Assembly: GCA_965218785.1 (NCBI GenBank)
Contig: OZ244650.1
Location: 800,001 to 864,000, forward strand
Direction: 5' to 3'
Length of the DNA: 64,000 bases
DNA from: Nitrosopumilus sp.
Lineage (GTDB): Archaea > Thermoproteota > Nitrososphaeria > Nitrososphaerales > Nitrosopumilaceae
Position numbers and translations under genes: made by a program. Below the pieces are notes generated by a model. The model worked only from the letters and a program-made list of their open reading frames with translations. It was not told the DNA's origin and searched no databases. The first letter of the stretch is position 1. Every line of letters begins with the position of its first letter. This document shows positions 8,289 to 56,344 of this stretch, piece by piece.

Positions 8289-9446
8289 ATGAAATATGAA
8301 AAAATTACTTTAAAAAATATTGGTCCTATAGAAAAAGGTCAAATTCAGCGTCATAAAATCAATGTATTTTTTGGACCTAATAATTCTGGTAAATCTATGA
8401 CATCTAGACTGATTCATGGTATCGGTCAGCTAAATACTGGTTCTAGAGGTCTTCAAGGAATGGTTAAAAAAGAAATGAATTCACAGAAAGAACTGCATGC
8501 GTTTTATAGATATTCTATTCTAAATAGCGCTGGTCTTGGCATGCAAGATCTCTTATCGTATAAGAAAGAATCATGTCATCTAACTGTCACATTTAGTGGA
8601 AAAACACCTGAAATGGATTTTGGCTTTAAAAAAAACACGTCAATTACTAAAAAACATTTAATGTTACAACACCATGCATCAGTGCTTTCTCAAACTTCAA
8701 GAGACAGTGTGTATATTCCAGCAGGCAGAACTGGAACCATCCAATCTTTCACGAGTATCACTAAAATGAGAAATCAACTTCTTCGAGATCTTTTGGGCTC
8801 TTTTCAAATTGACGATCCTTCTAATATTAAAAAAACATCTGCAAAAGAAATTAAAAACTTTACACGTTCATCAAGTAAGTTACCTGAACATCTGGAACAA
8901 TTCCATGATTTGATTCTTGATACACATGCTAAAGGAATGAGTAAAGACGTTCAAGATTCATTTTCAAATTTACTCCTTGGTTTAATTGAATCTACGGATA
9001 CTGGAGGACTGCCTGAAATAATTTACCGAGATCCGACTGGATTTGTGACTGAAATTGAATCTGCAGGTTCTGGAACGGTGTCATCTTTTCCGATTGTTGC
9101 AGGTGTTCATTGTGTTAACAAAAATGGTATTTTGATTATTGAGGAACCAGAGGCACACTTGGAACCGGCAAAACAGCTTAGGCTTATTGAAGAACTTGTT
9201 ATGATTGCTGAAAAGAAAAAAATAGATTTGATTTTTACAACTCATAGTGATTATGTTGTTAAAAAATTATTGGCACTGGTAAGTAGAAAAAAAATAAAAC
9301 ATAGTGATTTGGGTTTATATTATTTTAATCGAACTCCTACATCCCTAACACATATAGAAAAAATCCCTGTTGATAAAACTGGGGAAGCAGAACAGGCACT
9401 ATTTGAAAACGCACTAGATACACTGGTGGAAGAATTTTCAGAATAA
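8289..9446 (+). CDS. AAA/ABC-type ATPase (AAA_15/AAA_21-like, defence or TA associated)
   Basis: Walker A GPNNSGKS, YIPAGR, AGSG signature, IIEEPEAHLEP, TTHS; AT-rich. Confidence 0.88.
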   Translation: MKYEKITLKNIGPIEKGQIQRHKINVFFGPNNSGKSMTSRLIHGIGQLNTGSRGLQGMVKKEMNSQKELHAFYRYSILNSAGLGMQDLLSYKKESCHLTVTFSGKTPEMDFGFKKNTSITKKHLMLQHHASVLSQTSRDSVYIPAGRTGTIQSFTSITKMRNQLLRDLLGSFQIDDPSNIKKTSAKEIKNFTRSSSKLPEHLEQFHDLILDTHAKGMSKDVQDSFSNLLLGLIESTDTGGLPEIIYRDPTGFVTEIESAGSGTVSSFPIVAGVHCVNKNGILIIEEPEAHLEPAKQLRLIEELVMIAEKKKIDLIFTTHSDYVVKKLLALVSRKKIKHSDLGLYYFNRTPTSLTHIEKIPVDKTGEAEQALFENALDTLVEEFSE

Positions 9447-12902: not shown

Positions 12903-12934
12903 TCAGTTATTGTAAAGTTATTGGGAGCTAGAAA

Positions 12935-13019
12935 TGGGCTTGGTGTGTTTTGAACCCACGTAATCCTAAGATAGCTATCTGACAAACAGCCGTGTTTAAC
13001 CTAGCTTTACTACAAGCCC
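12935..13019 (-). tRNA. tRNA-like sequence: class II (Leu-like) body with GTC anticodon; possibly a pseudo-tRNA
   Basis: Acceptor GGGCTTG/CAAGCCC plus A73; D loop AGCTAGGTTAA; anticodon stem GCTGT/ATAGC around loop TTGTCAG; long variable region; T arm GTGGG-TTCAAAA-CACAC with one mismatch; 85 nt. Confidence 0.6.
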
Positions 13020-13170
13020 ATTAAATGTTAAAATACTACAAGTTAGTAATAATATTATCTGACAAACAGTATCCATAGGAATATGGCGGTGGAATGATCC
13101 AAATTAATTAATTAATTTGGAACTCCACTTTTTTCTATTCTATTCAAACTAGCATTTTGGATCAAAGTAA

Positions 13171-13385: not shown

Positions 13386-13529
13386 ATGAGACACATATCC
13401 GATGCAAGACAGGCAGATGATCTCACTCCTGAGGAGATCAAGGATATTGATGAGTTTTATGCAGATGACAAAGGCAGGAAAACAGTGTCTTTTGATGAAT
13501 TCATGAAAGAGCTAAAAGAAGAATCTTGA
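13386..13529 (+). CDS. small acidic antitoxin-like protein (47 aa)
   Basis: MRHISDARQADDLTPEEIKDIDEFYADDKGRKTVSFDEFMKELKEES; TTGA overlap with a RelE-like ORF. Confidence 0.6.
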   Translation: MRHISDARQADDLTPEEIKDIDEFYADDKGRKTVSFDEFMKELKEES

Positions 13530-15052: not shown

Positions 15053-15970
15053 GTGACGGATTCTAATAGGAATACGGATTCAGAAAAAACAGAGACCATT
15101 CCAATTTACATTTGGTCAAGCAGGGATTTGGATAAAAAAAAATTGATTGCAACTGAGACAGAAACAGACACTGGAATTTTTGAGGCATCTGTATCTTTTG
15201 GAATGACTGATGATATAACTAGTCAGCAAATACAGGCATTTGAGGGGGACACACTATACACTCAATATTATAATTTTGTATCACCCACGCCATTCTCAAC
15301 ATCCCGTGAGTACAACACAGACATGGATACGACAATTATGGGATGGGCACATCCGGACTCTGTGTGGGGTGATAACTGGGCAAACATCGTGGTGCAAAAC
15401 AATGTCAAATTCATTTATGATCCCTGCATGGTTGAATTCATGGACAAAATAGGTGAGAATGATCCCGGATTTGACCTGCTTGACATACAGTACCCCACAC
15501 CACTAAAACAAATGAAATCTGGATTATACCCATTTGAGATAAAATGCAAGGATCATTTATTGCTGATCTTCAGGCATTCGGATAGTTCCCCCGTATGTGC
15601 AAGTCCGGAACATGCCATAAAATTAACTTCAAAAGCAGGCTGGACGAATAATTTTAATCCGCTTGTCCATCCGATGGCTGATTCACCGACTCTTGAATAT
15701 AGAGAAAAGTTTTGCGAGTCACACAATGGAACCTGGTCTGAGCAGTTCAATAACTGTGTTGGTGGACTCTTGAATGTGCCATGCGATAACATTGATAGAT
15801 CCGAATTGAGCCCTCCGGATATTTTCATAGGGGTATATGGAGAAACAACCTGTTCATCACATGAATTATTTTGCAGGTCCATGGGCGGGCATTCTGAATG
15901 CATGTCTTATGAACAATTAGGACACGGACGTGATGTTTGTAGTTCCATCTGTGAGTTTGATGATAAATAA
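15053..15970 (+). CDS. probably 5'-truncated extracellular protein with thaumarchaeal PLKQ...C...SPVC...KL..GW module and Cys-rich tail
   Basis: ETETDTGIFEASVSF (S-layer-like repeat); PLKQMKSG...CKDHLLLIFR..SSPVCA; no signal peptide at the GTG start. Confidence 0.6.
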   Translation: MTDSNRNTDSEKTETIPIYIWSSRDLDKKKLIATETETDTGIFEASVSFGMTDDITSQQIQAFEGDTLYTQYYNFVSPTPFSTSREYNTDMDTTIMGWAHPDSVWGDNWANIVVQNNVKFIYDPCMVEFMDKIGENDPGFDLLDIQYPTPLKQMKSGLYPFEIKCKDHLLLIFRHSDSSPVCASPEHAIKLTSKAGWTNNFNPLVHPMADSPTLEYREKFCESHNGTWSEQFNNCVGGLLNVPCDNIDRSELSPPDIFIGVYGETTCSSHELFCRSMGGHSECMSYEQLGHGRDVCSSICEFDDK

Positions 15971-16058
15971 CAGTTCAAATCCCAGGTGTTGAAAGATACC
16001 TGAATGGAATCTGACTGACCTCATGAATTTTTGATAATCGCCACATCTGATGAATCTA

Positions 16059-16105
16059 GGTTATAGTGGATTCTAGTGATCTGATCACCAAAATGCACCA
16101 GAGCC
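16059..16105. repeat. 47-nt imperfect palindrome (hairpin B), copy 1
   Basis: GGTTATAGTGGATTCTAGTGATCTGATCACCAAAATGCACCAGAGCC. Confidence 0.85.
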
Positions 16106-16295
16106 CAGCAAAGCGTGATTTCACACCAGATCCACCCAAAAATAGATCAAACTATAAAAATAATCAAATTCAGGGTAATTTCTATATACTAATTATGACT
16201 ACTTTACTCATGGATAGATTCACTTTAATTAATTATGATATGCGGTTAATTGATTTTTATACTTTGAATTTTATCAGTAGGAGTGAAGTCAAAGC

Positions 16296-16553
16296 ATGAG
16301 TAATTCAACAAGTACTGTCAAATCTAGTTTCCTTAATCCCAAAGAACGTAAAGCATTAAAAGAATACCAGGAGTATAAAGAACTCAGAATAATTGTTACA
16401 AGACCAGTTAGGGCATTTAATGATACTGAAGCAATACTGAAAGATTTACAAGGTGAGGGACTCTCATCATTACAGAAAGAAATTGAGCGATCAAAAAAAT
16501 CTCAAACAAAAACCATTACCAGACCAAAACTCAAAAGATCGCATGTTAGATGA
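16296..16553 (+). CDS. hypothetical protein upstream of Clp-fold protease
   Basis: 85-aa ORF with SD-like AGGAGTGA; overlaps the next gene. Confidence 0.55.
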   Translation: MSNSTSTVKSSFLNPKERKALKEYQEYKELRIIVTRPVRAFNDTEAILKDLQGEGLSSLQKEIERSKKSQTKTITRPKLKRSHVR

Positions 16554-17355
16554 AACTGGAAAGATCATCAAACAAATAGAAGAGATACGCAAATCAAAAC
16601 TTCTAGTTGTTATATGTCATCAGTCAATCAGTTTACAAGCAAGCTTATCAATAAATAAAATCTTGCGTAAAATCGAACATTTGGATCATTTGGATATCCT
16701 TTTGGAATCTGGAGGAGGTGATATTGATGCAGCATATAAAATTCTTAACTTATTCAAAAGTTATGCAAGTAAAATATCTGTAATAGTTCCTTTTTATGCT
16801 AAAAGTGCTGCAACGTTAATTGCCCTTGGTGCTGATGAATTAATTGTTTGTAAGGCTGGGGAATTAGGTCCTCTTGATCCTCAAGTTAGAGATCCGCAAA
16901 CTAATTCATTTGTACCTGCACATTCCATTAAGGAAGCAATGAGTTTCATAGAAGAGATTCATGATCCTGTGATGAAACTAAGTCTAACTGACAAGATTCC
17001 TGCATTATTGATTGGTGCATATAGGGCATCAGGAAAATCATGCAAGCAATATCTTGATGCAATATTCACAGAAAAAAAGATAAAAGATAAAGATAAAATG
17101 ATAAAAATATTTACAGAGAAATTTTTGTCTCATGGTTATCCAATGCACAGAGACTTTTTAGCAAAATATCCCATTAATTTGATTAAACATGATGATGTAT
17201 TGGAAGATAAATTCTCTGAATTACATGAAAAATACAGTGATTATTATAAACAATTATACCGTGATAATTCAGAGTTAGCAGGAGATTTACTACTTTTACA
17301 ATCAAATGAGCATTCTCTAGTCATGTTAGATGATGAAGAAATTGATAACACATAA
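16543..17355 (+). CDS. SDH-family Clp-fold serine protease
   Basis: LESGGGDIDAA, VPFYAKSAATLIALGADE, LGPLDPQ, SHGYP. Confidence 0.85.
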   Translation: MLDETGKIIKQIEEIRKSKLLVVICHQSISLQASLSINKILRKIEHLDHLDILLESGGGDIDAAYKILNLFKSYASKISVIVPFYAKSAATLIALGADELIVCKAGELGPLDPQVRDPQTNSFVPAHSIKEAMSFIEEIHDPVMKLSLTDKIPALLIGAYRASGKSCKQYLDAIFTEKKIKDKDKMIKIFTEKFLSHGYPMHRDFLAKYPINLIKHDDVLEDKFSELHEKYSDYYKQLYRDNSELAGDLLLLQSNEHSLVMLDDEEIDNT

Positions 17356-17512
17356 ACCACCAATCTTTTGTCTCCACATCTTACAACAGAAAACTCAAGG
17401 TATAGGTGATTGTTGCATATATGGATTCCTACGATAGGTAAACTATCTTAATTTGTAAATTGCAAATGTCAATTCAAAAATACATACTACAGTGAAAGTC
17501 CGTGGACAGTGA

Positions 17513-17559
17513 GGTTCTGGTAGATTCTAGTGATCTGATCACCCAAATGCACCAGAGCC
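17513..17559. repeat. hairpin B, copy 2
   Basis: GGTTCTGGTAGATTCTAGTGATCTGATCACCCAAATGCACCAGAGCC. Confidence 0.88.
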
Positions 17560-17624
17560 TACAACACCCATGTCTGGATCTGAGATCATCCCTCAACTTG
17601 TACCAGAATTTTGTGCATAAAATA

Positions 17625-17660
17625 TCAAATTTTAAATATCCATTATGATAAACATGTCAT
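17625..17660 (+). promoter_or_regulatory. TATA-box promoter for a leaderless antitoxin-like ORF (repeated at about 18685 and 19101)
   Basis: TTTAAATA 23-30 nt before the ATG, conserved in all three units. Confidence 0.55.
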
Positions 17661-17804
17661 ATGGCAGTAAGAGAAGTTGCACCACTTAGTCAAAGACAAT
17701 GGGATAAATTACAGGAACTTATGGCAAGAGGATCTACTAAGAAACAATTGAAAACAATTGCAGACGCTAAAGAACGTATTAAAAATATCAAAGTAGAATT
17801 TTAG
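17661..17804 (+). CDS. antitoxin-like micro-protein A1 (47 aa)
   Basis: MAVREVAPLSQRQWDKLQELMARGSTKKQLKTIADAKERIKNIKVEF; directly upstream of the GNAT gene; two paralogs nearby. Confidence 0.7.
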   Translation: MAVREVAPLSQRQWDKLQELMARGSTKKQLKTIADAKERIKNIKVEF

Positions 17805-17815
17805 GTTTTTAAAAA

Positions 17816-18379
17816 TTGTCCGAACAAATTGATTTCAATGATCCAAACTTGATTAGATTTCAAAGAGTAAAATCACCTGCCGATTTAGATGGATTTAACT
17901 CTGATGTTGTTGAGTTTAATGAATACATTGGTCCGGAGATTGCTTTTGATCTAGAACACAGCATTACACGGGCTTACTTGATTAGAGTTGAAGAGGACGT
18001 TGTAGGATATATTGATTTATCCATGGCTCATCTTAAAAATAATGCAACTCCTGCCATAGCAGATAAACAAATTAAAAGCAATGTTCCGGCAATATTGATT
18101 AGTCATTTGGCTGTAGATGTCGTATTTCAAGGACACGGTGTTGGGAGATTCCTTTTAAAATTGATTATTGATAAATTGATTCCGAAATTAAAAAAAATGG
18201 CAGGATGCAGATATGTAATATTGAATCCAAGAGATGATCAAGGTGTCCGAGATTTTTATATAAATTGTAAATTTGAGTATGTTAAAAAACTCAAAGATGA
18301 CAGAAAACCTGATAATGAATTGGATTTTTGTTTGTTTGATTTGATAGGTATTAAAGAGGAAGATGAGGAATACACCTAG
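17816..18379 (+). CDS. GNAT N-acetyltransferase, TacT/AtaT-like toxin type
   Basis: VPAILISHLAVDVVFQGHGVGRFLL, GCRYVIL, DFY motifs. Confidence 0.8.
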   Translation: MSEQIDFNDPNLIRFQRVKSPADLDGFNSDVVEFNEYIGPEIAFDLEHSITRAYLIRVEEDVVGYIDLSMAHLKNNATPAIADKQIKSNVPAILISHLAVDVVFQGHGVGRFLLKLIIDKLIPKLKKMAGCRYVILNPRDDQGVRDFYINCKFEYVKKLKDDRKPDNELDFCLFDLIGIKEEDEEYT

Positions 18380-18528
18380 AAAAATCCGTGAACTAAAAAC
18401 CATCAAAAAACTAGAGAGGTTAATGGCTTTACCCAAGACCCCTGAATAATAAAATCAAAATATCCTGAAAATAAATCACAAACTGTTTTGCCACACATTA
18501 CAAGAAATTTTTCACGACAACACAACGA

Positions 18529-18617
18529 CTGATGCAAAACAGTGATCTGAGCACCAAAATGCAAAGTCCATGGTTTGGTGGATTCTAGTGATCTGATCAC
18601 CAAAATGCACCAGAGCC
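18529..18617. repeat. hairpin B partial variant (18529-18563) plus copy 3 (18572-18617)
   Basis: Two adjacent matches to AGTGATCTGA(T/G)CACCAAAATGCA. Confidence 0.85.
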
Positions 18618-18718
18618 TACAACACCATGTCTGGATCTGAGATCATCCCTTCACTTATGCCTGATTTTTATACATAAAATGCCAAAATTTTAAATATCCA
18701 TTATGATAAACATGTCGC

Positions 18719-18862
18719 ATGGCAGTAAGAGAAGTTGCACCATTTGATGAAAAACAATGGAAACAATTACAGAAAAGTATGGCAAGAGGACCTACTAAGA
18801 AACAGTTGGAAATGATTGCAGACGCTAAAGAAAGTACCAAAAACATCAAAGTAGAATTTTAG
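18719..18862 (+). CDS. antitoxin-like micro-protein A2 (47 aa)
   Basis: MAVREVAPFDEKQWKQLQKSMARGPTKKQLEMIADAKESTKNIKVEF. Confidence 0.7.
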   Translation: MAVREVAPFDEKQWKQLQKSMARGPTKKQLEMIADAKESTKNIKVEF

Positions 18863-18873
18863 GTTTTTAAAAA

Positions 18874-18990
18874 TTGTCCGAACAAATTGATTTCAATGAT
18901 CCAAACTTGATTAGATTTCAAAGAGTAAAATCACCTGCCGATTTAGATGGATTTAACTCTGATGTTGATGAGTTTAATGAATACATTGGT
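18874..18990 (+). pseudogene. 5' stub of GNAT gene cut at hairpin B
   Basis: Near-identical to 17816-17932, then switches into GGTTCTGGTGGATTC. Confidence 0.85.
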
Positions 18991-19034
18991 TCTGGTGGAT
19001 TCTAGTGATCTGAGCACCAAAATGCACCAGAGCC
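18988..19034. repeat. hairpin B, copy 4
   Basis: GGTTCTGGTGGATTCTAGTGATCTGAGCACCAAAATGCACCAGAGCC. Confidence 0.88.
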
Positions 19035-19135
19035 TACAACACCATGTCTGGATCTGAGATCATCCCTCAACTTATGCCATATTTTTATACATAAAATGCC
19101 AAAATTTTAAATATTCATTATGATAAACATGTTGC

Positions 19136-19279
19136 ATGGCAGTAAGAGAAGTTGCACCATTTGATGAAAAACAATGGAAACAACTTGAGGAAATGATGTT
19201 CAGAGGATCTACTAAAAAACAATTGAAAGCAATTGCAGACGCTAAAGAACGTATTAAAAACATCAAAGTAGAATTTTAG
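19136..19279 (+). CDS. antitoxin-like micro-protein A3 (47 aa)
   Basis: MAVREVAPFDEKQWKQLEEMMFRGSTKKQLKAIADAKERIKNIKVEF. Confidence 0.7.
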   Translation: MAVREVAPFDEKQWKQLEEMMFRGSTKKQLKAIADAKERIKNIKVEF

Positions 19280-19290
19280 GTTTTTAAAAA

Positions 19291-19363
19291 TTGTCAGAAC
19301 GAATTGATTTCAATGATACAAGCTTGGTTGAATTTGAAAGGGTAAGATCACCTGCCGATTTAG
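19291..19363 (+). pseudogene. diverged 5' stub of a GNAT allele
   Basis: MSERIDFNDTSLVEFERVRSPADL versus MSEQIDFNDPNLIRFQRVKSPADL. Confidence 0.75.
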
Positions 19364-19545
19364 TTATAACATGGATCCCATTAATAAAACGCTTATTCTT
19401 TTTCTTTATTATCTACAGGAAAGAATTTCGCAATAATTGTCTCTGAATCTATCTTCATAACGTTTCCTTTTGTTGTACAAAAAGTAGATATCTAGGATTC
19501 AAAAGATCATAGTGGATTAATTTTGAATGATCTTCATTTTATTAA

Positions 19546-20238
19546 TTATTGAAATAATTCCGGCATTTTGATGTCTGATGGTATATTCTCCAGGATATCC
19601 AGTGGTTCGTTAAGCTCCATTGCACCGTACTCTATCATTTTTTCAGGCCATTTCAAGTTATTATTGTGAACTACCGACTTGCAAATAAACAGTGGTCTGC
19701 CTAGTCTGAGTGTCTCCAAGCCCTGATGTAGCGAACCGCTTGAATCACCGGCTTCCACAATTACAGTGGCATCAGAAATCAACGCCATGGTTTTGTTTCG
19801 CAACACAAAATCCTTTGGCGTAGTTGTATGACCTGTAGGATACTGGGAAATCACCAAATGATTTTTCATAATTTCTTCCTGCAATTCTGAATTTTCTTTG
19901 GGATAGACCCTGTTTAACGGAGTGCCAATAACTGCAATGGTTTTACCTTCATGTCTGATGGCAGTTTGGTGTCCTGCCGTATCAATTCCCTTTGCGAGTC
20001 CGCTTACAATGGTTACTTTGTTTTCAATCAAGCACTTTGAGATCTCTTTAGCTTCTGATAGTCCCTGTTCTGATGCTTTTCTAGAACCGATGATTGAGAC
20101 TCTTGGACAGGGTAAAGGAATCCTCATGGGACCTTTGCAGAAGATCCTCTTTGGAGCAAATTTTGATTCAACATCATTTAACAGACGACCGAGTAGTTTT
20201 TCTAATCGAATATCCTGATATCCTGCGTCTTTAACCAT
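19546..20238 (-). CDS. dprA: DprA/SMF-family DNA-processing protein
   Basis: VSIIGSR, IVSGLAKGIDTAGH, FVLRNKTMA, VIVEAGDSSGS. Confidence 0.9.
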   Translation of the reverse strand: MVKDAGYQDIRLEKLLGRLLNDVESKFAPKRIFCKGPMRIPLPCPRVSIIGSRKASEQGLSEAKEISKCLIENKVTIVSGLAKGIDTAGHQTAIRHEGKTIAVIGTPLNRVYPKENSELQEEIMKNHLVISQYPTGHTTTPKDFVLRNKTMALISDATVIVEAGDSSGSLHQGLETLRLGRPLFICKSVVHNNNLKWPEKMIEYGAMELNEPLDILENIPSDIKMPELFQ

Positions 20239-20275
20239 CTATTAGGAAACCATCATGTTTGTATTTTAATATTAG

Positions 20276-20640
20276 TGACACGCAAATATTTTTGAGATCA
20301 ATTTTATCAAACCAAAAACTACAAGGATCATTCCTGTTCTAAAATAACATGAGATCAATCATGCCGGAAGATTTCAGAAAAGCGTACAAAAAAGAAAAAG
20401 ATCCAAAAGTAAAGCCAAGAATGCTCAGTACACATGTTTTATGTACGTAACAAGGATGTGCAGGAAATAGCACAAGATCTACTGCAATGTCCTAACTGGG
20501 TCACCTAGTGAGTAGAACGCTTGGAAAATGAAGGTCTGGAAGGCTCCTGGATCTTCCCAAATATGAAAGACCTGTAAAAATTCCACACAAAAAAATGGAT
20601 CAGATAATGCCCAAAACATCCAGTGGACGCATTACGCCGG
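20276..20640 (+). mobile_element. degraded IS630-like transposase (N-terminal HTH) with terminal sequence shared with 33980-34020
   Basis: MPEDFRKAYKKEKDPKVKPRML...EIAQDLLQCPNWVT*..R.ENEGLEG..DLPK..RP; frameshifts and stops. Confidence 0.65.
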
Positions 20641-20731
20641 GATTCCACCATTATTTGCACATCCATTTGTAATTTTGTATTATGATACAGCAACATCATG
20701 TATTGTAAAAATTTCAGAAATAGTTAATTCT

Positions 20732-20821
20732 CTAAATTTCATCTAATGCATCAAAAATCACTCTTGACTCATTAATGCTTTTTCTAACTGCTTCTTGGAG
20801 CTCTTCTTTAGTCATTTTCAA
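20732..20821 (-). CDS. 29-aa micro-ORF, antitoxin-like amphipathic helix
   Basis: MKMTKEELQEAVRKSINESRVIFDALDEI; AT-rich TATA-like region upstream. Confidence 0.35.
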   Translation of the reverse strand: MKMTKEELQEAVRKSINESRVIFDALDEI

Positions 20822-21174
20822 TACCAATTTAACATTATAATATAATCTATTAAAGATAACGGTTGTCTGCTCTGGATAATTTGCGGGTGTTTTCACTGCA
20901 CTGTAATTGGGGTGTTTTCGAGAATTTTAGATACTTGTAGCGATCAAAAATTGCATATTAAGTCAATAATCCTGCTTTAAAAATATTCCAGCTATCTAAA
21001 AATGGAGATGTTAAACCTTGACCCACCAACCATTATTTTTTCCAGATAGGGTATTCCCAGTACCATCTGAATTTCGTTTTTTCTTCACATGTGGTTAATA
21101 GAATAAACGGTAGAATTTTTATTGAAATCTACTTTAATTTGGATGCTGATACGTAATTGGTTGCCTTGAAACAC

Positions 21175-21290
21175 GATTCTGGTGTAAAACAGTGGTCTGA
21201 TCACCCCAATACATCAGAACCGGTGGGACTGACTCTGGAGAAGATCATATTTCATACCTCATGTCTAGCACACGATAATTTCACAGTACC
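21175..21290 (+). repeat. hairpin B copy 5 (21175-21221) followed by element A copy 3 (21234-21290)
   Basis: GATTCTGGTGTAAAACAGTGGTCTGATCACCCCAATACATCAGAACC, 12 nt, then TCTGGAGAAGATCATATTTCAT...CATGTCTAGCACACGATAATTTCACAGTACC. Confidence 0.75.
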
Positions 21291-21333
21291 GATCATACCA
21301 AAAAATTATAAAGTCATTTTGTTATAATATAAC

Positions 21334-21456
21334 ATGATACCAAAAGAAAAACTACTATGGACTGCTAAAGATAGTGAGGATGCTAAAGCATTCGTAGAAG
21401 GTGTAGATAACGGTTCAATTCAAACCGAGGATTTCTTTAATTTAAAAAGGACATAA
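21334..21456 (+). CDS. 40-aa micro-ORF, antitoxin-like
   Basis: MIPKEKLLWTAKDSEDAKAFVEGVDNGSIQTEDFFNLKRT; TTATAAA box about 22-28 nt upstream. Confidence 0.4.
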   Translation: MIPKEKLLWTAKDSEDAKAFVEGVDNGSIQTEDFFNLKRT

Positions 21457-21556
21457 TATTCATTAGTAAATGCCTTGGATACCTTCAAGTCATTCTCCAA
21501 ATGTGGTTGATTTCAGTTTATGCATTTGGAATATGTCAGTCCAAGATAGATTACCA

Positions 21557-21688
21557 CTAAACTCTATCGAGTTCTTGCAATAGCTCCTTGAGGGTTTTTA
21601 TCTCTCCATCCTCACGGTTGCTTCTGAATTCTTTAATGTCCTTAATCTCTTCAGGTGTCAAATCATCAGACTGTTTTGTTTCAGTCAT
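21557..21688 (-). CDS. 43-aa antitoxin-like protein, paralog of 13386-13529
   Basis: MTETKQSDDLTPEEIKDIKEFRSNREDGEIKTLKELLQELDRV shares DDLTPEEIKDI.EF. Confidence 0.6.
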   Translation of the reverse strand: MTETKQSDDLTPEEIKDIKEFRSNREDGEIKTLKELLQELDRV

Positions 21689-22033
21689 ATTCTTTCTATT
21701 TTTTATATATTAAAAAAGACTATGAATCAAGATTATGCAAATTTGCAGACTCGATCAATCTTTTCCATATTTTGATGGTTATGATACCTGCTATCAATAT
21801 TAGATGATTCAGATTGGATGGTTCTACAAAACACTGTCTGAATCAATCCTCCAGTCTACAATACCCTCATTCTGACTTGGAAAAAACAGATCTGATGATA
21901 AACTGGAACACCACCACACACCATACAACTGCCAAATATGCGTAAAACCGTTCCACAGATGATATCATGCTGGGATAACTGACGGGATCCTGTCAAGAAA
22001 ACTTTAAACCTACTCAACAACACCAGTTTTTAA

Positions 22034-23128
22034 ATGGGAGGCAGAATTAAAGTCGGTTTAATAGGCATTGGTAACTGCTTTTCAGGGCTGATTCAAGGCA
22101 TAGAATACTATCGAAAAAACCCGTCGCAGCAGGTTATTGGAATTATTCATGAACAACTAGCCGGATATGGCATCCATGATGTTGATTTTGTATGCGGCTT
22201 TGATGTTGGTAAAAACAAGGTTGGCAAGCCACTCATGGATGCAATTTATGAATCCCCCAACATCGTTGACTGGATTCCCAAAAATGAAATGCCAAAGACT
22301 GCCGCCATGGTACATGAGAGTCCCATATTAGACGGGGTCGGACTGTGGGTTGAAAACAAAATCCTGCCAATTCAAAGTAACAAAACCATCGAGCAGATCA
22401 CCAAAGATGTAAAACAGATCATCCAAGATACAGGCGTCGAAGTTCTCGTATCGTACCTGCCTGTGGGTTCTGACAAGGTAACTGCATTCTGGGCTCAAAT
22501 CTGTCTTGATACCAAAACCGCATTTGTAAACTGTATTCCGTCATTTATCGCATCAGATGAGAAATGGGCTAAAAAATTCCAAGATGCAAACATTCCGTGT
22601 ATTGGCGATGACATAAAGGGCCAGGTTGGTGCCACCATAGTTCATAGGACTCTGGCAAAGTTATGTAACGACCGGGGGACCAAAATTGAAAAAACATACC
22701 AGATCAACGTTGGAGGCAACACTGATTTTCTAAACATGAAGGAGCAGGAACGGCTTGTTTCTAAAAGAATCTCCAAGACCGAAAGCGTTCAAAGCCAGCT
22801 TGATACCAGGCTAGATGATGATCAAATCTATGTCGGTCCGTCTGATTTCATCCCGTTTTTGGGCAATACCAAACTCATGTTTATGAGAATTGAAGGGCGT
22901 CAATGGGCAAACATCCCATACAACATGGAGGTTCGTCTGGACGTTGATGACAAGGCAAACTCTGCTGGTATCGTAATTGATGCAGTCAGGCTTGCAAAAA
23001 TCGCCCTTGATAGGGGGATTGGGGGGCCGATCAAGGCTGCCAGTGCATACCTGATGAAACACCCCATAGAACAAACCTCCGATGTTGCAGCAAAAATTGC
23101 ATGTGAAGAGTTTGTCGCAGACAAGTAA
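22034..23128 (+). CDS. ino1: myo-inositol-1-phosphate synthase
   Basis: GIGNC, SYLPVGS, GDDIKGQVGATIVHR, NVGGNTDFLNM, DDKANSAG. Confidence 0.93.
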   Translation: MGGRIKVGLIGIGNCFSGLIQGIEYYRKNPSQQVIGIIHEQLAGYGIHDVDFVCGFDVGKNKVGKPLMDAIYESPNIVDWIPKNEMPKTAAMVHESPILDGVGLWVENKILPIQSNKTIEQITKDVKQIIQDTGVEVLVSYLPVGSDKVTAFWAQICLDTKTAFVNCIPSFIASDEKWAKKFQDANIPCIGDDIKGQVGATIVHRTLAKLCNDRGTKIEKTYQINVGGNTDFLNMKEQERLVSKRISKTESVQSQLDTRLDDDQIYVGPSDFIPFLGNTKLMFMRIEGRQWANIPYNMEVRLDVDDKANSAGIVIDAVRLAKIALDRGIGGPIKAASAYLMKHPIEQTSDVAAKIACEEFVADK

Positions 23129-34910: not shown

Positions 34911-37900
34911 TTGATTATCTGCAGTAAATCTTTGTATGGAGACATTTTTCTTGCTCTCTGCTATTATCTTGGCAACCCCCCCTCCTCTCCGTAATCCTGA
35001 TTTCTGAACGGATCTCAGATCCCCGTTAATGGCATTTGAACCGATCATAATTACCCGGTTTTGCCGCAAAAATGATCTAATCCCAATAGTCCTGTCACAC
35101 CAGATAACACACATCCTTTTCTTTGATTTTCATAATTTGAGGGATTGATTGAAAATTTGAATTGATCATATCTAGTCAGATATTTCATCGGGTCCTGTGG
35201 TGGGACATCTGACAACAGGTAATCCATACATGGGCATTATCGGCCTCCGCACCTATCTGCCTGCAAAACCCTTATCATATCTGATGACCCAAGCGATCAG
35301 ATGTCTGATTAGGTGGCTAAATTTCCATATATTTCCTATATGGATAGGAAAAAACTAGCAAAATCAAGAAAATATAGAATATTCCCAACTAATTTGGATA
35401 TAACTATTTTAACTAAAGAATTACGGAAAACTACTATTGACTTCAAAAGACGTTCAATCACGGAGGAAAGGGGGGAACTGTATTGCAGTACAGCGCAATG
35501 ATTACTACTACCTGTTTGATACTATATGATATTATGTTGTTGTTTACTTGTCCTCCTTTTTGCATTCACTGCTGGACTGGTACTATCCGATGCACATGCC
35601 CAGACATACGTCCCACCCTTTGGGACTTTTGTAGACACGTTTGATAGTACCGACCTGGCTTCCCTTCCACGGGGAATCACAGCAAACTCCACTCACGTAC
35701 TGGTTGCAGATTATAACGGAATAAACATATTTGATCTGGACGGTAACATTGCCGGCACGATTGGCAGTTTTGGCAGAGACAACGGTCAGTTTGACAATCC
35801 ACGAGGAATCACAACAAACTCCACTCACATACTGGTTGCAGACACCGACAACAACAGGATACAGGTATTTGATAACACGGGCACCCATGTCACCACGATT
35901 GGCAATCCTGCTAACAGCATATCTGGCAGCTCATTAGACGGCATGTTTGACACGCCATCAGGAATCACAACAAACTCCACCCACATACTGGTTGCAGACA
36001 CCTACAACCACAGAATCCAGGTATTTGATCTGGATGGCAACTATCTCAGCCAGTTTGGCAACGACCTGCTTTCCCTTCCACGGGGAATCACGACAAACTC
36101 CACCCACATACTGGTTACAGACACCGGAAACAACAGAATCCATGTATTTGATTCAAACGGTACCATTGCCGCCACGTTTGGCAGTGTCGGCGGTCGTGCA
36201 GGTCAGTTTAACTATCCTACCGGAATCACAACAACTTCCACACACATACTGGTTACAGACACCCACAACGATAGAATCCAGGTATTTGATCATAGCGGCA
36301 ACTATGTAAGCATGATTGGCAGTTCCGGTAATATCGGTAATAATGAGAACCAGTTTGACAGACCATCCGGAATCACGACAACCTCCACGCACGTACTGGT
36401 TGCAGACACCGGCAACGCCAGAATCCAGATATTTGATCTTCCGCCTACCGTAACGATATCTTCCACTCTTTCTGATGGTGGACCTGCATTCTCTAATACC
36501 ATATCTTATGTTGTCCTGTTCAGTGAACCTGTGACTGGCTTTATGGCATCGGATATTACAATATCTGGGACGGCATCCGTCGACCCGTATGTGGCATCAA
36601 ATTTTGGTGGAACTGCTGATCGATACACCTTTGAGGTGGTAACCCCCTCCGTTGATACAGTCACAGTATCAATTCCTGAAAACACGGCAGAGGATAATGC
36701 AGGCAACGGCAACGTGGCATCTGACCAACATACCATTGCAATCGATATCGTCGCACCTACAGTATCTCTAACTACTGATGTCACCTATGGTGGTACCTCT
36801 GAGACTAACATGATATTCTATACTGCCGCCTTTGATGAGACCGTAACGGGATTTGATACCGCATCTGATATCACCATATCTGGAACAGCTACTGCAACGG
36901 CATCTGCACCGACTGGAGAAGGCGACACATACTACTTTACTGTGACTACCACCACTGACGGTACGGTCACAGTATCAATTCCTGCAAACGCGGCAGAAGA
37001 TAATGCAGGCAACGGCAACGTGGCATCTGACCCATACATCGTTACAGTGGATGCCCCTGCATCATTTGGGACTTTTGTCAGCACTATTGGCAGTTTCGGC
37101 AGAGACGACGGTCATTTTAACAATCCTAATGGAATCACGACAAACTCCACGCACATCCTGGTTGCAGACTCTGACAACAACAGAATACAGGTATTTCATC
37201 TAAACGGCACCCATGCCGACACGCTTGATAGTTTCGGCGATACGGGAGACGACGGGTTTAATCATCTACAAGCAATAACAACAAACTCCACGCACATCCT
37301 GGTTGCAGACACCTTCCATGACAGGATATTGATATTTGACACCGCAGGTAGATTGCTCCACACGTTTGGCAGCCACGGCACAGGCGACGGTCAGTTTGAC
37401 AGCCCGCGAGGCATCACGACAAACTCCACGCACATACTGGTTGCAGACACCAGTAACGACAGAATACAGGTATTTGATAACACAGGCACCCATGTCAGCA
37501 CGTTTGGCAATCACGGCTCAGGCGACGGTCAGTTTGACAGCCCGCGAGGAATCACGACAAACTCCACGCACATCCTAGTTACAGACTCTAGAAACGATCG
37601 GATACAGGTATTTGATAATACGGGCACCCATGTCGGCACAATTGGCAGTATGGGCTCAGACCTCCGCGAAATTGACAACCCACGAGGCATCACAACAACC
37701 CCCACACACATCCTGGTTGCAGACACCAGCAACCACCAGATACAGGTATTTCATCTGAACGGCGCCCATGTCGGCACAATTGGCAGTTCAGGCTCAGGCG
37801 ACGGCCAGTTTGGCGCACCACACGGAATCACGACAAACTCCACGCACATGCTGGTAACAGAAATCAGCAACGACAGAATCCAGATATTTGATCTTGCACC

Positions 37901-40900
37901 TGCCATGACCATAAATAGTAACACCTCCAACGGCGGTATGTCTTCCTCCGAGACCGTATCATACACTGTAACCTTTACAGAAGATGTGTCATACTTTGAT
38001 GGTACGGATATCACCGCATCTGGAACCGCATCCTGGGGTTCGCCTACCGTGTCAAACTTTATGAAAATAACTGCAACTGATTATACGTTTGACGTGGCAA
38101 CCACCGATGACGGTACGGTCACAGTATCTATTCCTAAAAACGTGGCAGTAGGTAGTGCAGACATCGGCAACGTGCCATCTGCCACACATGCCATTACGGT
38201 AGATACCACTGCACCTGCCGTAACCATAACTGCCGATGTCACTGATGAGGACACCGTAGACACTAACATGATATCCTATACTGCCACCTTTGATGAGGCA
38301 GTCACTGGCTTTGATGTCGCTGATGATATCACCGTATCCGGATCAGATACTGCAACGGCATCTGCACCGACTGGAGATGGTACCACCTACCACTTTACTG
38401 TGACTGCCATCACTGACGGTACGGTCACAGTATCGATTCCTGCAAACGCGGCAGAAGATAATGCAGGCAACTACAATATATCATCTGAACCATACACCGT
38501 TACCGTGGATGCCCCAGTATCGTTTGGGACCTTTGTCAGCACGATTGGCAGTGTGGGTGGCTCTGGCAACGACCAGTTTAAAAATCCAAGAGGAATCACG
38601 ACAAACTCCACCCACATACTGGTTGCAGACACTCTCAACAGCAGGATCCAGGTATTTGATCTGGACGGCACATATGTCAACACGATTGGCAGTTTAGGCT
38701 CAGGTAACGACCATCTTAACATTCCTACTAGAATCACAACAAACTCCACTCACATACTGGTTGCAGACACCAACAACCACAGGATACAGGTATTTGATCT
38801 GGACGGCACCCACACCGGTACGTTTGGCAGTAAAGGCTCAGCCGACGGTCAGTTTAACAGCCCGCGAGGAATCACAACAAACTCCACGCACATACTGGTT
38901 GCAGACCGCAACAACCACCGAATCCAGGTATTTGATAACACGGGCACCCATGTCAACTCGTTTGGCAGTCGTGGCGCCACCTCCGAAGGCAACCCCGGCG
39001 AGTTTAGATCACCTGCAGGAATCGCCACAACTCCAATACACATACTAGTTGCAGACACTGGCTACGGCAGGATACAGGTATTTGATCTGGACGGCAACTA
39101 TGTCGACCAGTTCGGCAACGGTTATCTTGAATCCCCACAAGGAATCACAATAACCCCTACACACATACTGGTTACAGACACCTACGACAACAGGATACAT
39201 GTGTTTGATCTGGTCGGCAACCATCTCGGCATGTTTGGCAGTCTTGACCACCCACGAGAAATCACGACAAACTCCACCCACATACTGGTTGCAGACACCG
39301 GCAACCACAGGATACAGATATTTGATCTTCCACATACTGCAACCATAAAGACTGACACCCACCACGGCAGCACGCAGGTCTCTGAGACGGTATCCTACAC
39401 TGTCACCTTTACAAAAGACGTGTCATATTTTGATGGTTCGGATATTATAATATCTGGAACAGCATCAGGCGTTCGCCCACCATATCAAACTTTATGAAAA
39501 TAACTGCGACTGATTATACGTTTGACGTGGCAACCACAGATAACGGTACGGTTACAGTAACGATTCCTAAAAACGTGGCGGTAACTGATACAGGTAACAG
39601 CAACATGGCATCTGAACCCTATACCGTTACAGTAAATACCAACGCCTCTACCGTAACTGTAATTACCGATACTGTGGATGGTGGTACTGCAACCACTAAA
39701 ACCATATCCTACATGGTCACATTTGACATGGATGTAAATGACTTTACTGAATCTGATATTGTGATAACTGGAACGGCATCCGGTGACTCACCTGCACCAT
39801 CAAACTTTATGAAATTAAGTGCTACATAGTATACCTTTGATGTGGCAACCATCCGTGACGGCACGGTCATTGTAATCATTCCTGAAAACGTGGCAACAAC
39901 TGATGCAGGCAACGGCAACATATCATCTGACACACATGCCATTATAGTGGATGCCCACATACCTGCCGTAACCATAACTGCAGATACCGCTGATGGTCGT
40001 ACCACGGGCACTAACATAATATCATATACTGCCACCTTTGATGAGGCAGTAACTGGCTTTGATACGGATGATATCACAGTATCTGGATCAGCTGCTGCAA
40101 CGGCATCTGCACCAACCGGAGATGGCACCACATACTTCTTTACTGTGACTGCCGATTCTGACGGTACGGTCACGGTATCTATTCCTGCAAACGCAGCAGA
40201 AGATATTACAGGCAACGGCAATGTGGCGTCTGACCCATACACCGTTACTGTGGATACCCCTGTAACATTTGGGACCTTTGCCAACACGCTTGGTAGTTCA
40301 AGTGGCTCTGGCAACGACCAGTTTAACAGTCCACGAGGAATCACGACAAACTCCACTCATATACTGGTTGCAGACCGCAACAACCACAGGATACAGATAT
40401 TTGATCTGGACGGCACCTATGTCAGCACGATTGGCAGTCTAGGCACCGGCAACGACCAGCTTAAAAATCCTTCTGGAATCACAACAAACTCCACCCACAT
40501 ACTGGTTGCAGACCCCGGCAACGACAGGATACAGGTATTTGATCTGGACGGTACCCACATCGGCACGTTTGGCAGGGAAGGCTCAACCGACGGTCAGTTT
40601 AACAGCCCACGCGGAATCACAACAAACTCCACTCACATACTGGTTGCAGACCGCAACAACCACAGGATCCAGGTATTTGATAACACAGGCATCCATGTGG
40701 CAGCTCGTTTGGACAACCACAGTGGTCCACCCGCTGTAAAGACCAACACCCCCAACGGCAGCACACAGGCCGGTATCCTACACTGTCACCTTTACAACAG
40801 ACGAAGGCAATCCTGGCGAGTTTAGATTTCCTGCAGGAATCGCCACAACTCCCACAGGCACATACTGGTCGCAGACAGTGGCTACGGCAGGATACAGATA

Positions 40901-43900
40901 TTTGATATGGACGGCACCTATGTCGACCAGTTCGGCAACGGTCATCTTGAATCACCACAAGGAATCACAACAACCCCCACACACATACTGGTTGCAGACA
41001 ACGACAACGACAGGATACACGTATTTGATCTGGACGGCAACCATCTGCCACCTTTGATGAAATAGTCACCGGCTTTGTTGATGCAGATGATATCACGGCA
41101 TGTTTGGCAGTCTTAACAACCCACAAGAAATCACAACAAACTCCACTCACATACTGGTTGCAGACACCGACAACCACAGGATACAGATATTTGATCTTCC
41201 ACCCGCTGCAACCATAAAGACCAACACCCCCAACGGCAGCACACAGGTCTCTGAGACGGTATCCTACACTGTCACCTTTACAATACTGGTCGCAGACGTG
41301 TCATACTTTGATGGTCGGCAACGGATATCACCGTATCTGGAACCGCATCGTATTTGATCTGGCGGTTCAGCATGTTTGGCCCACCGTCCACTCAAACTTT
41401 GTGAAAATAAATAAAGACCAACACCCCCAACGGCAGCACACACTGATTATACGTTTGACGTGGCAACCGCCCACCGATCAAACGGTACTGATTATACGTT
41501 TGACGTGGCAACCGCCGATAACACGGTTGCAGTATCGATTCCTAAAAACGTGGCAGTAGATGATGCAGGCAACGGCAACGTGACATCTGACCTATATACC
41601 GTTACAGTAAATACCAACGCCCCCACTGTAACCATAATTGCCGATACTGTAAATGGTGGCACCGTAGATACTAAAACCATATCCTACATGGTCACATTTG
41701 ACATGGATGTAAATGACTTTACTGAATCTGATATTATGGTAACTGGAACCGCATCCGGTGACTCACCTGCACCCTCAAACTTTATGAAATTAAGTGCGAC
41801 AGAGTATACCTTTGATGTGGCAACCATCCGTGATGGTACGGTCACAGTAACGATTCCTGAAAATGTGGCATCAAGTAATACAGGCAACTACAACGTGGCA
41901 TCTAACACGCATACCATTACAGTAGATGCCTACATACCTACCGTAACCATAACTACCGATACCGCTGATGGTAGTACCACAGGCACTAACATAACATCCT
42001 ATACTGCCACCTTTGATGAAATAGTCACCGGCTTTGATACCACATCTGATATCACCGTATCCGGATCAGCTGCTGCGACGGCATCAGCACCAACCGGAGC
42101 CGGCACCACATACTCCTTTACCGTGACTGCCGATTCTGACGGTACGGTCACGGTATCTATTCCTGCAAACGCTGCAGAAGATAGCACAGACAACGGCAAC
42201 ATACAATCTGACCCATACACCGTTACAGTGGATACCCCGATAACATTTGGGACTTTTGTCAGCTCGTTTGGACGTCAGGGTTCAGGTGACGGCAGGTTTA
42301 ACAATCCTATTGGAATCACAACAAACTCCACACACATACTGGTTGCAGACGCCACCAACAACAGAATCCAGATATTTTATCTGAACGGCACCCATTCCAA
42401 CACGCTTGACAGTTTTGATGGCTCAGACGACGGCCTGTTTGATAACCCACAAGGAATAACGACAAACTCCACTCACATGCTGGTTGCAGACACCGATAAC
42501 GACCGGATACTGATATTTGACACTGCAGGCATTTTACTTCAAACGATTGACCGTTTTGGTCCAGATCTCCGTAAGTTTAACAGTCCGCAAGGAATCACAA
42601 TGACCTCCGTGCACATCCTGATTACCGACTCCCGTAACCACATGGTACACATATTTGATCTGGACGGTACCCCTGTCAACTCGTTTGAATTACAAGACGC
42701 AAGAACCAACCATCCTTTCATCCCACGAGGAATCACAACAAACTCCACACACATACTGGTTACAGACACCGACAACGGCAGGATACAGGTATTTGATAAC
42801 ACAGGCACCCATGCCGGCACTATTGGCAGTATTGGCACTACCGACGGCAAGTTTAAAAACCCACGAGGAATCACAACAACCCCTACACATATCCTGGTTG
42901 CAGACACCAGCAACCACAAGATACAGGTATTTGATATGGGTGGTAATCATGTCAGCACGCTTGGCCGTTTCGGAGGAGGCGCCGGCCAGTTTTCTTTACC
43001 ATATGGAATCACAACAAATTCCACGCATATGCTGGTTGCAGACACTCGCAACGCCAGAATCCAGACATTTGATCTTGCACCCACCGTGACCATAAATACC
43101 AACATCTCCAACGGAGGCACATCTTTTTCAGAGACCGTATCCTACACTGCCACCTTTACTGAAGACGTATCGTACTTTGATGGTGCGGATATCCTCATAT
43201 CTGGAACCGCATCGGGAGGTTTGCCCACCGTATCAAACTTTGTGAAAATAAATGCGACTGATTATACGTTTGACGTGGCAACCACAGATGACGGTACTGT
43301 CACAGTAGCGATTCCTAAAAACGTGGCAGTAGGCAGTGCAGACGCCGGCAACGTGCCATCTGCCACACATACCATTACAGTAAATACCGACTCACCCATC
43401 GTAACCATAACTCCCGATGATGACAGCACCGTAGATACTGACACAATATCCTATACTGTTACCTTCAGCGAGGAGGATATGGTGGGCTTTACGGTATCTG
43501 ATATTGAACTATCTGGAACGGCAACTATCCACCCGTCTGCACCATCAAACTTTATGAAAACAAGTGCGACAGAGTATACCTTTGACGTGGCAACCACAGA
43601 TGACGGTACGGTCATTGTATCGATTCCTGAAGACGTGGCAGTAAGTACGACAGACACAGGCAAAGTGACATCTGTAAAACACACCATTACAGTAAATGCC
43701 AACATACCCACAGTAACCATAACTGCCGATACGGCATATGGTGGCACCACAAACACTGACACAATATCCTATACTGCCACCTTTGATGAGGAAGTAACCG
43801 GCTTTGATGATACAGATGATATCGTCATATCCGGAACAGCTACTGCAACGGTATCTGCACTGACTGGAGACGGTGCCACATACTTTTTTACCGTGACTGC

Positions 43901-51332: not shown

Positions 51333-51395
51333 GGCGGCGGCGGAGGTGGAGGTGGCGGCGGAGGCGGCGGCGGTGGCGGCGGCGGTGGCGGCGGC
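51333..51395 (+). repeat. poly-Gly linker (21 Gly)
   Basis: GGC/GGT/GGA run after a Pro-rich segment. Confidence 0.9.

Positions 51396-56340: not shown

Positions 56341-56344
<4 letters not shown>

Follow-up and report, generated by a model that had tools for sequence, protein, structure and literature searches.

What does a short, repeated palindrome do at the borders of defence and toxin-antitoxin (TA) modules in an archaeal chromosome? The question is raised by a 64,000-nucleotide (nt) stretch of Nitrosopumilus sp. (contig OZ244650.1, positions 800,001 to 864,000 of the forward strand; hereafter the window, position 1 being its first letter), in which a near-palindrome of 46-47 nt recurs between 16059 and 21221, in five full copies and one degenerate copy, all on the plus strand. 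A sequence-only reading of this DNA had proposed that the copies delimit self-contained cargo units and may be the recombination sites of a cassette-shuffling system acting in trans. A pattern scan and a covariance model (CM) recovered the copies at the places given in that reading. The palindrome family is real, dispersed and lineage-specific. As to its role, the explanation we favour, while granting it somewhat less than an even chance, is that the palindrome is a recombination joint site for promoter-bearing accessory modules, acted on in trans.

A 23-nt left-arm pattern, with at most three mismatches allowed, matched the window four times against 0.00 expected from 100 shuffles. The CM, for which 27 copies served as input, gave the six window sites scores of 39.8-73 bits (E 2e-8 to 5e-18). 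The same model found nothing significant in the other 59 kb of the window (best E 1.4 and 3.4). Copy 1 (16059-16105; 68.9 bits, E 7.8e-17) forms the left border of a low-GC accessory islet and starts 89 nt past the stop of an open reading frame (ORF) with a WING-49 domain (15053-15970). It is followed by copy 2 (17513-17559; 68.8 bits) and by the degenerate copy (18527-18568; 39.8 bits, E 2.1e-8), which has a AAAACAGTG left arm and no outer stem. Copy 3 (18571/2-18617; 68.7 bits) is 46 nt long, one base being absent near its 5' end, copy 4 (18988-19034; 73 bits) is an exact match to the pattern and is joined to a truncated GNAT gene, and copy 5 (21175-21221; 54.3 bits, E 1.3e-12) is a divergent one with the AAAACAGTG type of left arm. 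Successive spacings are 1454, 1012, 46, 417 and 2187 nt. The islet itself (16000-21800) has a GC content of 0.30-0.36 between flanks of 0.40-0.48, with the drop at ~16000 and one exception, 0.38-0.42 at ~19600-20500, over a DprA/ShosA-like gene; it is bounded by the WING-49 ORF on one side and by inositol-3-phosphate synthase (22034-23128) on the other.

Is the palindrome a local peculiarity of this islet? An exact-pattern scan covering one genome per species, the window's own genome not being among the scanned records, returned 19 stretches (cited below by L numbers). Sixteen came from three Nitrosopumilus records of metagenome-assembled genomes: 13 from OZ244579.1, a 2.36-Mb chromosome with 18 matches, two from JAEFCZ01 contigs and one from a CBDFGF01 contig. 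The remaining three were bacterial and were discarded as chance matches, having the pattern and no palindrome beyond it. Scanned over the stretches fetched from these relatives, as the sequence-only reading had envisaged, the CM added seven copies that do not match the pattern, giving 28 sites in the 16 Nitrosopumilus stretches and 34 with the window. None of the 34 overlaps an ORF with a family match, and the copies lie within low-GC stretches or at their edges.

The copies often form co-oriented arrays. The clearest is L009, a set of four copies on one strand between two core genes: NDH-2 is followed by a copy, two ORFs, a second copy, one ORF, a third copy, two ORFs and a fourth copy, after which comes cyclophilin. 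Both orientations occur, and counted across the stretches the members of 13 of 17 adjacent pairs point the same way, the orientation of two weak copies being uncertain because their CM scores are nearly equal on both strands. Relative to mechanically called ORFs, the upstream ORF is co-oriented with the palindrome at 25 of 34 copies; the downstream one is co-oriented at 17 of 33 and opposed at 16, which is uninformative. These calls mislabel the antitoxin genes of the window. Units between copies measure 0.2-2.2 kb, and the genes beside copies are often of the defence or TA kind. Shedu SduA directly follows a copy in L004, two copies in L019 enclose AbiV, and L009 has a winged helix-turn-helix protein with a DUF6036 nucleotidyltransferase; an AbiE-like pair is among the flanked modules. 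GNAT TA modules lie near copies in L003 and L010-L012, and matches to DndB, PD-Lambda-3-like and DarG-like proteins were also found near copies.

Rfam gave no match over the whole window at gathering score, nor in 15900-21400 at E up to 1, and a blastn search of phage and plasmid collections with 16000-21300 gave none. What we take from the articles cited by PMC number holds for the parts covered. Within them, the palindrome is not described in PMC6563490, PMC8371274, PMC2958812, PMC9668308, PMC6697440 or PMC3733652, nor does it appear in the literature listings, although the att-site table of PMC6563490 and the data files of PMC9668308 could bear on the point; in the thaumarchaeal mobile-element survey the words "hairpin" and "MITE" are absent and "palindrom*" is used once, in a context outside the part covered (PMC6563490). 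We regard the family, and its link to the borders of defence modules, as solid and, against this literature, as new for these archaea.

Homology between places in these genomes tends to stop at the palindrome. Blast matches between the 16 stretches and the window islet have 195 endpoints; 27 of these fall no more than 10 nt from a copy, where 1000 randomisations gave 3.3 on average and never more than 11. At 16 of the 34 copies, the match of a flank to DNA elsewhere ends no further than 15 nt from the palindrome, and the sole match that spans a copy is the orthologous pair formed by window 21099-21497 and L001. Several segments that end at a copy continue into unrelated DNA elsewhere; this is so for L016 and L001, for L011 5355-5479 and L011 1514-1639, for L011 5305 and L010 3890, and for L015 and L012. 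The breakpoints are at the outer ends of the palindrome, and at two joints the partner DNA resembles those ends. The GNAT gene ahead of copy 4 is cut at 18987|18988, and the full gene carries, exactly at the cut site, a look-alike of the palindrome start (10/14 match, by reading), both of which had been seen correctly from the letters alone. An independent cut of the GNAT gene, 12 nt further along, is seen in L003, where the copy at the cut has the opposite orientation, and in L016 a fragment of a surface-protein gene is joined to the palindrome through an 8-nt CCAGAACC common to both.

The palindrome is also found at the border of an islet that differs between two genomes. Window 50.3-53.7 kb, which lies downstream of a giant NHL/Ig-repeat surface-protein gene, has its syntenic counterpart in L011. 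At this locus OZ244579.1 carries a low-GC islet of 5.5 kb, with one copy close to either edge: window homology resumes ~12 nt past one copy, and the other is set ~400 nt into the islet from the opposite edge. In the window the same locus (52.1-53.5 kb) holds 1.3 kb of other DNA, with a DUF2203 gene, and no copy. The TA units discussed below are arranged differently too, tandem in the window and in separate fetched stretches of OZ244579.1. As a separate observation on the surface-protein genes, large repetitive NHL/Big_12 proteins are encoded on the plus strand of the window at 35526-39497, 39842-40825 and 41460-52154 (one of 3564 aa); their coding repeats contain GGTTCTGG and CCAGAACC words of the palindrome ends and are similar to repeats in L012 and L011.

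What lies between the window copies? Unit 1 encodes an SDH-type ClpP-like serine protease (16453-17355, plus strand; Pfam PF01972 6e-17, NCBIfam Clp_like_SDH 1e-20). An 85-aa upstream ORF (16296-16553, plus strand), read in a different frame, overlaps it close to a stretch of seven A, and the protease gene may be frameshifted. Units 2-4 are three copies of one module, made up of the palindrome, a ~100-nt leader, a 47-aa ORF and a GNAT acetyltransferase. The leader has a TTTTAAATA promoter box 23-31 nt before the ATG (by reading), and the 47-aa ORF ends 12 nt upstream of the GNAT gene in every copy. Unit 2 (17661-18379, plus strand) has its 47-aa ORF at 17661-17804 and, at 17816-18379, a 187-aa GNAT that is the only complete one of the three; Pfam GNAT matches are below or near the cut-off, and among PDB sequences the best match is 7f37_B (1.1e-9), with KacT 5zgn_C at 0.007. 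The 47-aa ORF has no family match. By its layout and these matches the module reads as a putative type II TA pair. Unit 3 (18719-18987, plus strand) comprises the second 47-aa ORF (18719-18862) and a GNAT gene (18874-18987) cut after ~114 nt at the exact first base of copy 4. Unit 4 (19136-19363, plus strand) holds the third 47-aa ORF (19136-19279) and a GNAT stub whose homology is lost at ~19363, where there is no palindrome. The copies at 17513, 18572 and 18988 are the 5' ends of a longer repeat, and the picture of isolated hairpins standing between units does not hold for these three.

Since three of the six window copies head the repeated TA unit, the whole array could be taken for a by-product of local tandem duplication of that unit. 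We give this next to no weight, as it is already contradicted: unrelated DNA lies next to the copies at 16059 and 21175, 28 more copies lie beside unrelated genes in three other genome records, and the window TA copies of units 2 and 3 are closer to copies of OZ244579.1 than to other window copies. Over a common 330-370 nt, the TA copy of unit 2 (w1) is closest to L012 (93.3% identity) and that of unit 3 (w2) to L010 (95.9%). For that of unit 4 (w3) the closest copy in OZ244579.1 is L003 (82.5%), the nearest overall being w2 (89.4%); within the window w1 and w2 are 91.1% and w1 and w3 87.5% identical. Three paralogue types stand in tandem in the window; in OZ244579.1 their closest relatives are spread over four separate fetched stretches. 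Judging from these identities, the window TA copies are not recent tandem duplicates. Comparable syntenic DNA outside the cassettes, a fast-evolving surface-protein gene with its flank, is 75-78% identical, and the contrast only suggests exchange between lineages, without proving it.

Homology of the TA unit to the copies in OZ244579.1 begins, by blast, at 17560, the first base past copy 2. In alignments, the degenerate copy at 18527-18568 is orthologous to copies standing 3' of the TA unit in L012, where it is degenerate too, and in L010, where it is intact. A second unit, non-coding or with a small ORF, lies between two palindromes in both L010 and L004 (211 nt, 68.7%). Two ORFs travel with the TA unit of OZ244579.1, by reading one of them small-membrane-protein-like and the other of low complexity.

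Is it the structure or the sequence of the palindrome that is maintained? It was suggested that the structure is under selection, on the strength of a T-A pair in the copy at 21175 that replaces a mismatch. This compensation is absent from the closest relative of that copy, L001 5270-5316, which has C opposite A at the pair in question. In the family as a whole (34 copies, 22-pair stem), standard pairs make up 73.7%, compared with 72.3% when the letters of the 3' arm are shuffled among copies, and 8 of 500 shuffles reach the observed value; double changes number 11 pairs against 8.1 expected, and three stem pairs are unpaired in 21-25 of 33 distinct rows. These figures give no support to selection on hairpin structure. 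What is conserved is a slightly asymmetric sequence, in which the two arms vary nearly independently of each other. The centre of the palindrome, GTGATC-T-GATCAC, is nearly invariant, and most copies carry identical asymmetric mismatches. The arms are mixed: outer triplets ACG/CGT are complementary in L014, whereas L015, L019 and L008 have only one of the two, combined with the common TTC/GAA type, and in L009 the inner-left and inner-right arm variants assort independently among the four copies (read from the alignment). Because the sequence is conserved and the arms are nearly independent, the palindrome fits a two-armed, double-stranded protein-binding site better than a structure kept by compensation.

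A binding site of this kind could also be an operator or insulator, or the element could act at the RNA level as a 3'-UTR stabiliser or terminator, its coincidence with rearrangements being secondary. The nearly invariant central 13 nt would suit a dimer-binding site, the position of 25 of 34 copies past a co-oriented ORF would suit a 3' element, and most copies fold better than shuffles (z-scores of -1.2 to -4.2 for the window copies). However, the copies stand upstream of the cassette promoter box and hence outside the downstream mRNA, and the sense strand is the worse folder in 24 of 34: the strand antisense to most of the cargo is the better folder in those 24, with no difference in 2 and the reverse in 8 (Wilcoxon p 0.0005; RNA parameters), because A-C mismatches on one strand are G-T on the other. 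There is essentially no compensatory covariation and, even at E up to 1, no Rfam match, and a regulatory role leaves both the spread to unrelated modules and the enrichment of breakpoints unexplained. We consider it quite improbable.

Among known recombination sites, those of integrons invite comparison first. attC sites are ~57-141 nt long and end in R'' RYYYAAC at the 5' side and R' GTTRRRY at the 3' side. The palindrome is like them, and like clusters of attC sites lacking integrases (CALIN), in that imperfect palindromes in direct orientation, 0.2-2.2 kb apart, separate one- or two-gene units with TA and small unknown cargo; there is no adjacent integrase, the antisense strand folds better, and the sites resemble one another more within a genome or array than across them, as do attC sites such as the VCRs of Vibrio. 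CALIN are defined by at least two attC sites <4 kb apart without an integrase, and they occur in archaea, as far as the part covered tells (PMC9668308); the window array falls within this spacing. The copies are also imperfect palindromes able to fold as single strands, as attC sites are. On the other side, the palindrome has 47 nt, and its ends, GGTTCTG...CAGAACC, place GTT 5' and AAC 3' on either strand, the reverse of the attC order, as the sequence-only reading had already remarked. Its centre is the most conserved part, whereas that of attC is variable, and its arms do not covary. The units carry their own promoter boxes and stand in short arrays at at least 13 places, not on one platform. 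The flanks of the copies are not conserved, and no IntI-like ORF was found in the window or the loci. Given the reversed ends, the length, the conserved centre and the missing covariation, we do not class the palindrome with attC.

Sites of other recombinases share some of the same features. Large serine recombinases act at att sites that are imperfect palindromes of ~40-50 bp centred on the crossover, and their recombinant sites are half-site hybrids. The palindrome is alike in size and form, and its mixed arms suggest half-site hybrids; it differs in that no such recombinase lies near any unit and in that the sites are many and alike, not one attB/attP pair. In the pdif modules of Acinetobacter plasmids, TA or resistance modules are bounded by inverted-repeat Xer sites, and the host enzyme acts in trans. 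Here too there are discrete modules, often TA, bounded by short inverted-repeat sites. Yet the palindrome, with a 7-nt ATCTGAT centre, 11-nt arms and a second, outer pair of arms, differs in geometry from the 11-6-11 of Xer/dif, and its sites are mostly direct where pdif sites are alternately inverted. Thaumarchaea lack xerA, according to the part covered of PMC2958812.

A different explanation needs no dedicated recombination system. A selfish palindrome, like a repetitive extragenic palindrome (REP, or REPIN) or a foldback miniature inverted-repeat transposable element (MITE), would have been spread as a bare 47-mer by a transposase into tolerant, AT-rich accessory DNA, and the joints and arrays would come from ordinary homologous recombination, or from slippage stimulated by the palindrome, between copies. 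This fits most of the same data. The palindrome is a discrete unit whose sharp outer ends are joined to unrelated DNA on both sides, it occurs in both orientations, and its conserved sequence, with asymmetric mismatches common to most copies, is what a master copy would leave. Like REPs and REPINs, it is a short, interspersed, extragenic, lineage-specific palindrome in tens of copies, mostly downstream of genes (here 25 of 34 past a co-oriented ORF, in keeping with what is given of REPs in PMC3733652). That source, in the part covered, describes REPs as elements of 20-40 bp with a GTAG or CGTC tag, predominantly in head-to-head dimers and mostly downstream of genes, in families that are lineage-specific and served by a single-copy REP-associated tyrosine transposase (RAYT) that can lie elsewhere (PMC3733652). 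The RAYT gene often has the repeats on its flanks, and surveys report REP families in bacterial phyla. Against this description, the palindrome measures 47 nt, none of its 34 copies has a GTAG or CGTC tag, 13 of 17 pairs are co-oriented and not head-to-head (PMC3733652, same part), and its arrays are tied to variable islets and module borders. No RAYT or IS200-type Y1 gene was found in the 212 kb examined, which include the 64-kb window and ~125 kb of Nitrosopumilus loci. Ends of the IS200/IS605 type (palindrome-associated transposable elements, PATE) were set aside, the four bases 5' of the copies differing from copy to copy, with no conserved flanking tetranucleotide and no Y1 match.

The likeness to MITEs lies in the two 23-nt inverted arms, in the sharp outer ends and in the islets, which the palindrome has in common with a MITE-like repeat and IS630-like debris. 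By reading the flanks, we found neither a target-site duplication nor TA-dinucleotide flanks at the copies, and within the fetched DNA the two flanks of a copy were contiguous elsewhere, as expected of an insertion with an empty site, for 0 of 34. The arms show no convincing similarity to the IS630-like end or to the 12-bp ends of the ~135-nt repeat, as far as the fetched DNA goes, so that an origin from the ends of these elements, which would have undone the sequence-only proposal, was not borne out. MITE identity was rejected on these three grounds. Finally, arm variants are common to copies within arrays (L009, window), which suggests local spread and not spread from a master copy. Taken together, we hold the selfish palindrome to be doubtful, while regarding it as the most serious of the alternatives.

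The other mobile repeats of these islets are worth recording. The second dispersed repeat, ~135 nt with 12-bp inverted ends (TATAGCGAGAAG ... CTTCTCGCTATA), is MITE-like and often lies just past stop codons. Copies are at L001 3553-3689, L011 2481-2616, 3577-3709, 5522-5655 and 2138-2253, L013 2546-2671, L015 ~218-330 and L002 4748-4828; in the window a diverged remnant without inverted ends (18381-18484, plus strand) lies directly past the stop codon of the unit 2 GNAT gene. IS630-like debris is present at L013 4906-5226 (minus strand), with a DDE_3 fragment, and at L002 5847-5897, and in L002 an IS end directly abuts a palindrome copy.

The copies might, alternatively, be attachment sites left behind by integrase-carrying elements or proviruses after repeated integration and decay, the "cassettes" being the debris of these larger elements. 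Direct repeats do flank islets (window, L009, L011), the cargo is of mobile-element type in islets that look decayed (a frameshifted protease, truncated GNATs, a lone ShosA), a terminase large-subunit-like gene lies ~750 nt from a copy in L019, and tandem integrations are known in this phylum, as stated in the available part of PMC6563490. On the other hand, neither an integrase nor an integrase remnant was found in the 16 loci or the window, the units are only 0.2-2.2 kb long, and the same site at at least 13 places in one chromosome is unusual for an attachment site; the syntenic locus has no solo attB-like copy. We therefore judge this explanation unlikely. The terminase-like gene (L019 2338-4116; PHROG 1.6e-19) starts at that distance from the copy and is followed by large unknown ORFs; the region may be a provirus, with its other end beyond the DNA that was fetched.

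The recombination joint site is favoured because it alone accounts jointly for the co-oriented arrays, the islet borders, the breakpoints, the mixed arms and the joints at secondary sites. The palindrome would be a double-stranded, directional, inverted-repeat site; its family, on the evidence of one scan, does not extend beyond a few Nitrosopumilus genomes. Modules with their own promoters (TA pairs, defence genes, small unknown genes) would be inserted, duplicated, truncated and reshuffled at such sites, with short co-oriented arrays at many chromosomal places as the outcome. We infer that a dedicated recombinase, encoded elsewhere and acting in trans, does the joining, and that exchange may take place at two kinds of position: inside the palindrome, which would give the hybrid arms, and between its ends and secondary sites that resemble them, which would give the truncations of GNAT and surface-protein genes.

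Several observations weigh against this account. No tyrosine or serine recombinase, HUH enzyme or intact transposase was recognised by Pfam in 55 window and 145 locus ORFs, and scans of ORF subsets with PADLOC, PHROGs and NCBIfam found no recombinase either; the only match of transposase type in this hunt was the DDE_3 fragment in L013. The statement of the sequence-only reading that the window has no recombinase holds for the ORFs scanned, and the search that it proposed, for a recombinase or HUH/RAYT gene next to other copies, found none in the loci covered. Several segments ending at a palindrome have a copy without one elsewhere (L010 3890, L012 4077, L001 7716, L011 1514), and the TA fragment in L003 is inverted relative to its two flanking copies. 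Upstream of the TA units in OZ244579.1 there is only a non-significant palindrome-like remnant (8.7 bits, E 2.4), which was not counted, and no "empty" single site is present at the syntenic locus in the window. Nor are the blast endpoints independent of one another, many being supplied by the TA (GNAT) module, and the loci were fetched through the palindrome itself, a genome-wide background being absent. In addition, 47 bp of near-identity could be enough for homologous recombination or replication slippage without any dedicated enzyme.

The proposal that the copies delimit self-contained units accordingly stands in part: the co-oriented arrays, above all L009, speak for it, whereas the many homologous segments with a palindrome at one copy only, and the inversion in L003, do not. 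The same holds for the trans-acting, cassette-shuffling site, where breakpoints, islet border and rearranged TA units agree with the joining of modules at the palindrome and the dedicated recombinase is the conditional part. A bolder form of the idea is that Nitrosopumilus has an integron-like but unrelated cassette system, in which a trans-acting recombinase, with the directional 47-bp palindrome as its crossover site, would insert, excise and reshuffle promoter-bearing defence and TA modules at many small arrays and exchange them between lineages. This we think possible, though well short of probable.

The rest of the islet holds further accessory genes. A DprA-like/ShosA-like protein is encoded on the minus strand at 19546-20238 (Pfam PF02481 2.9e-52; PADLOC ShosA 2.5e-72), ShosA being the antitoxin-like component of the Shosta system; no ShosT-like partner lies beside it. 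It is followed on the plus strand by what reads as the broken N-terminal remnant of a transposase (20358-20610), with in-frame stops and a frameshift in three-frame translation; we take it, by eye, to be IS630-like. A 400-nt repeated unit (21099-21497, plus strand) is 92.3% identical to L001 5194-5597 and holds palindrome copy 5 and a 40-aa ORF (21334-21456). Two paralogous small ORFs without a family match, 13386-13529 (plus strand, 47 aa) and 21557-21688 (minus strand, 43 aa), have the motif DDLTPEEIKDI in common; the first is near deoxyhypusine synthase, a little outside the islet, and the second is within the right end of the islet. tRNA-linked integration of the islet was considered and rejected, the sole tRNA (Asp, 12934-13020) being 3 kb away.

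Elsewhere the window encodes, besides deoxyhypusine synthase, SMC and an Alba-domain protein, which mark the host as archaeal, as do its relatives in the scan, all of them Nitrosopumilus records. An AAA_15/AAA_21 ATPase of the abortive-infection kind (8289-9446, plus strand) is found among core genes, and at 56341-60536 (plus strand) an N6/N4 DNA methylase, a type III restriction Res-like helicase and a small TnsA-like endonuclease stand in a row.

Ammonia-oxidising archaea are abundant, and the build of their flexible genome is poorly known. A site that marks the joints of defence and TA modules provides a handle for finding variable islets and the enzyme responsible, and for asking whether cassette-style shuffling evolved outside integrons. 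If the palindrome proves to be a selfish element after all, it would be an archaeal counterpart of the REP-like elements of bacteria.

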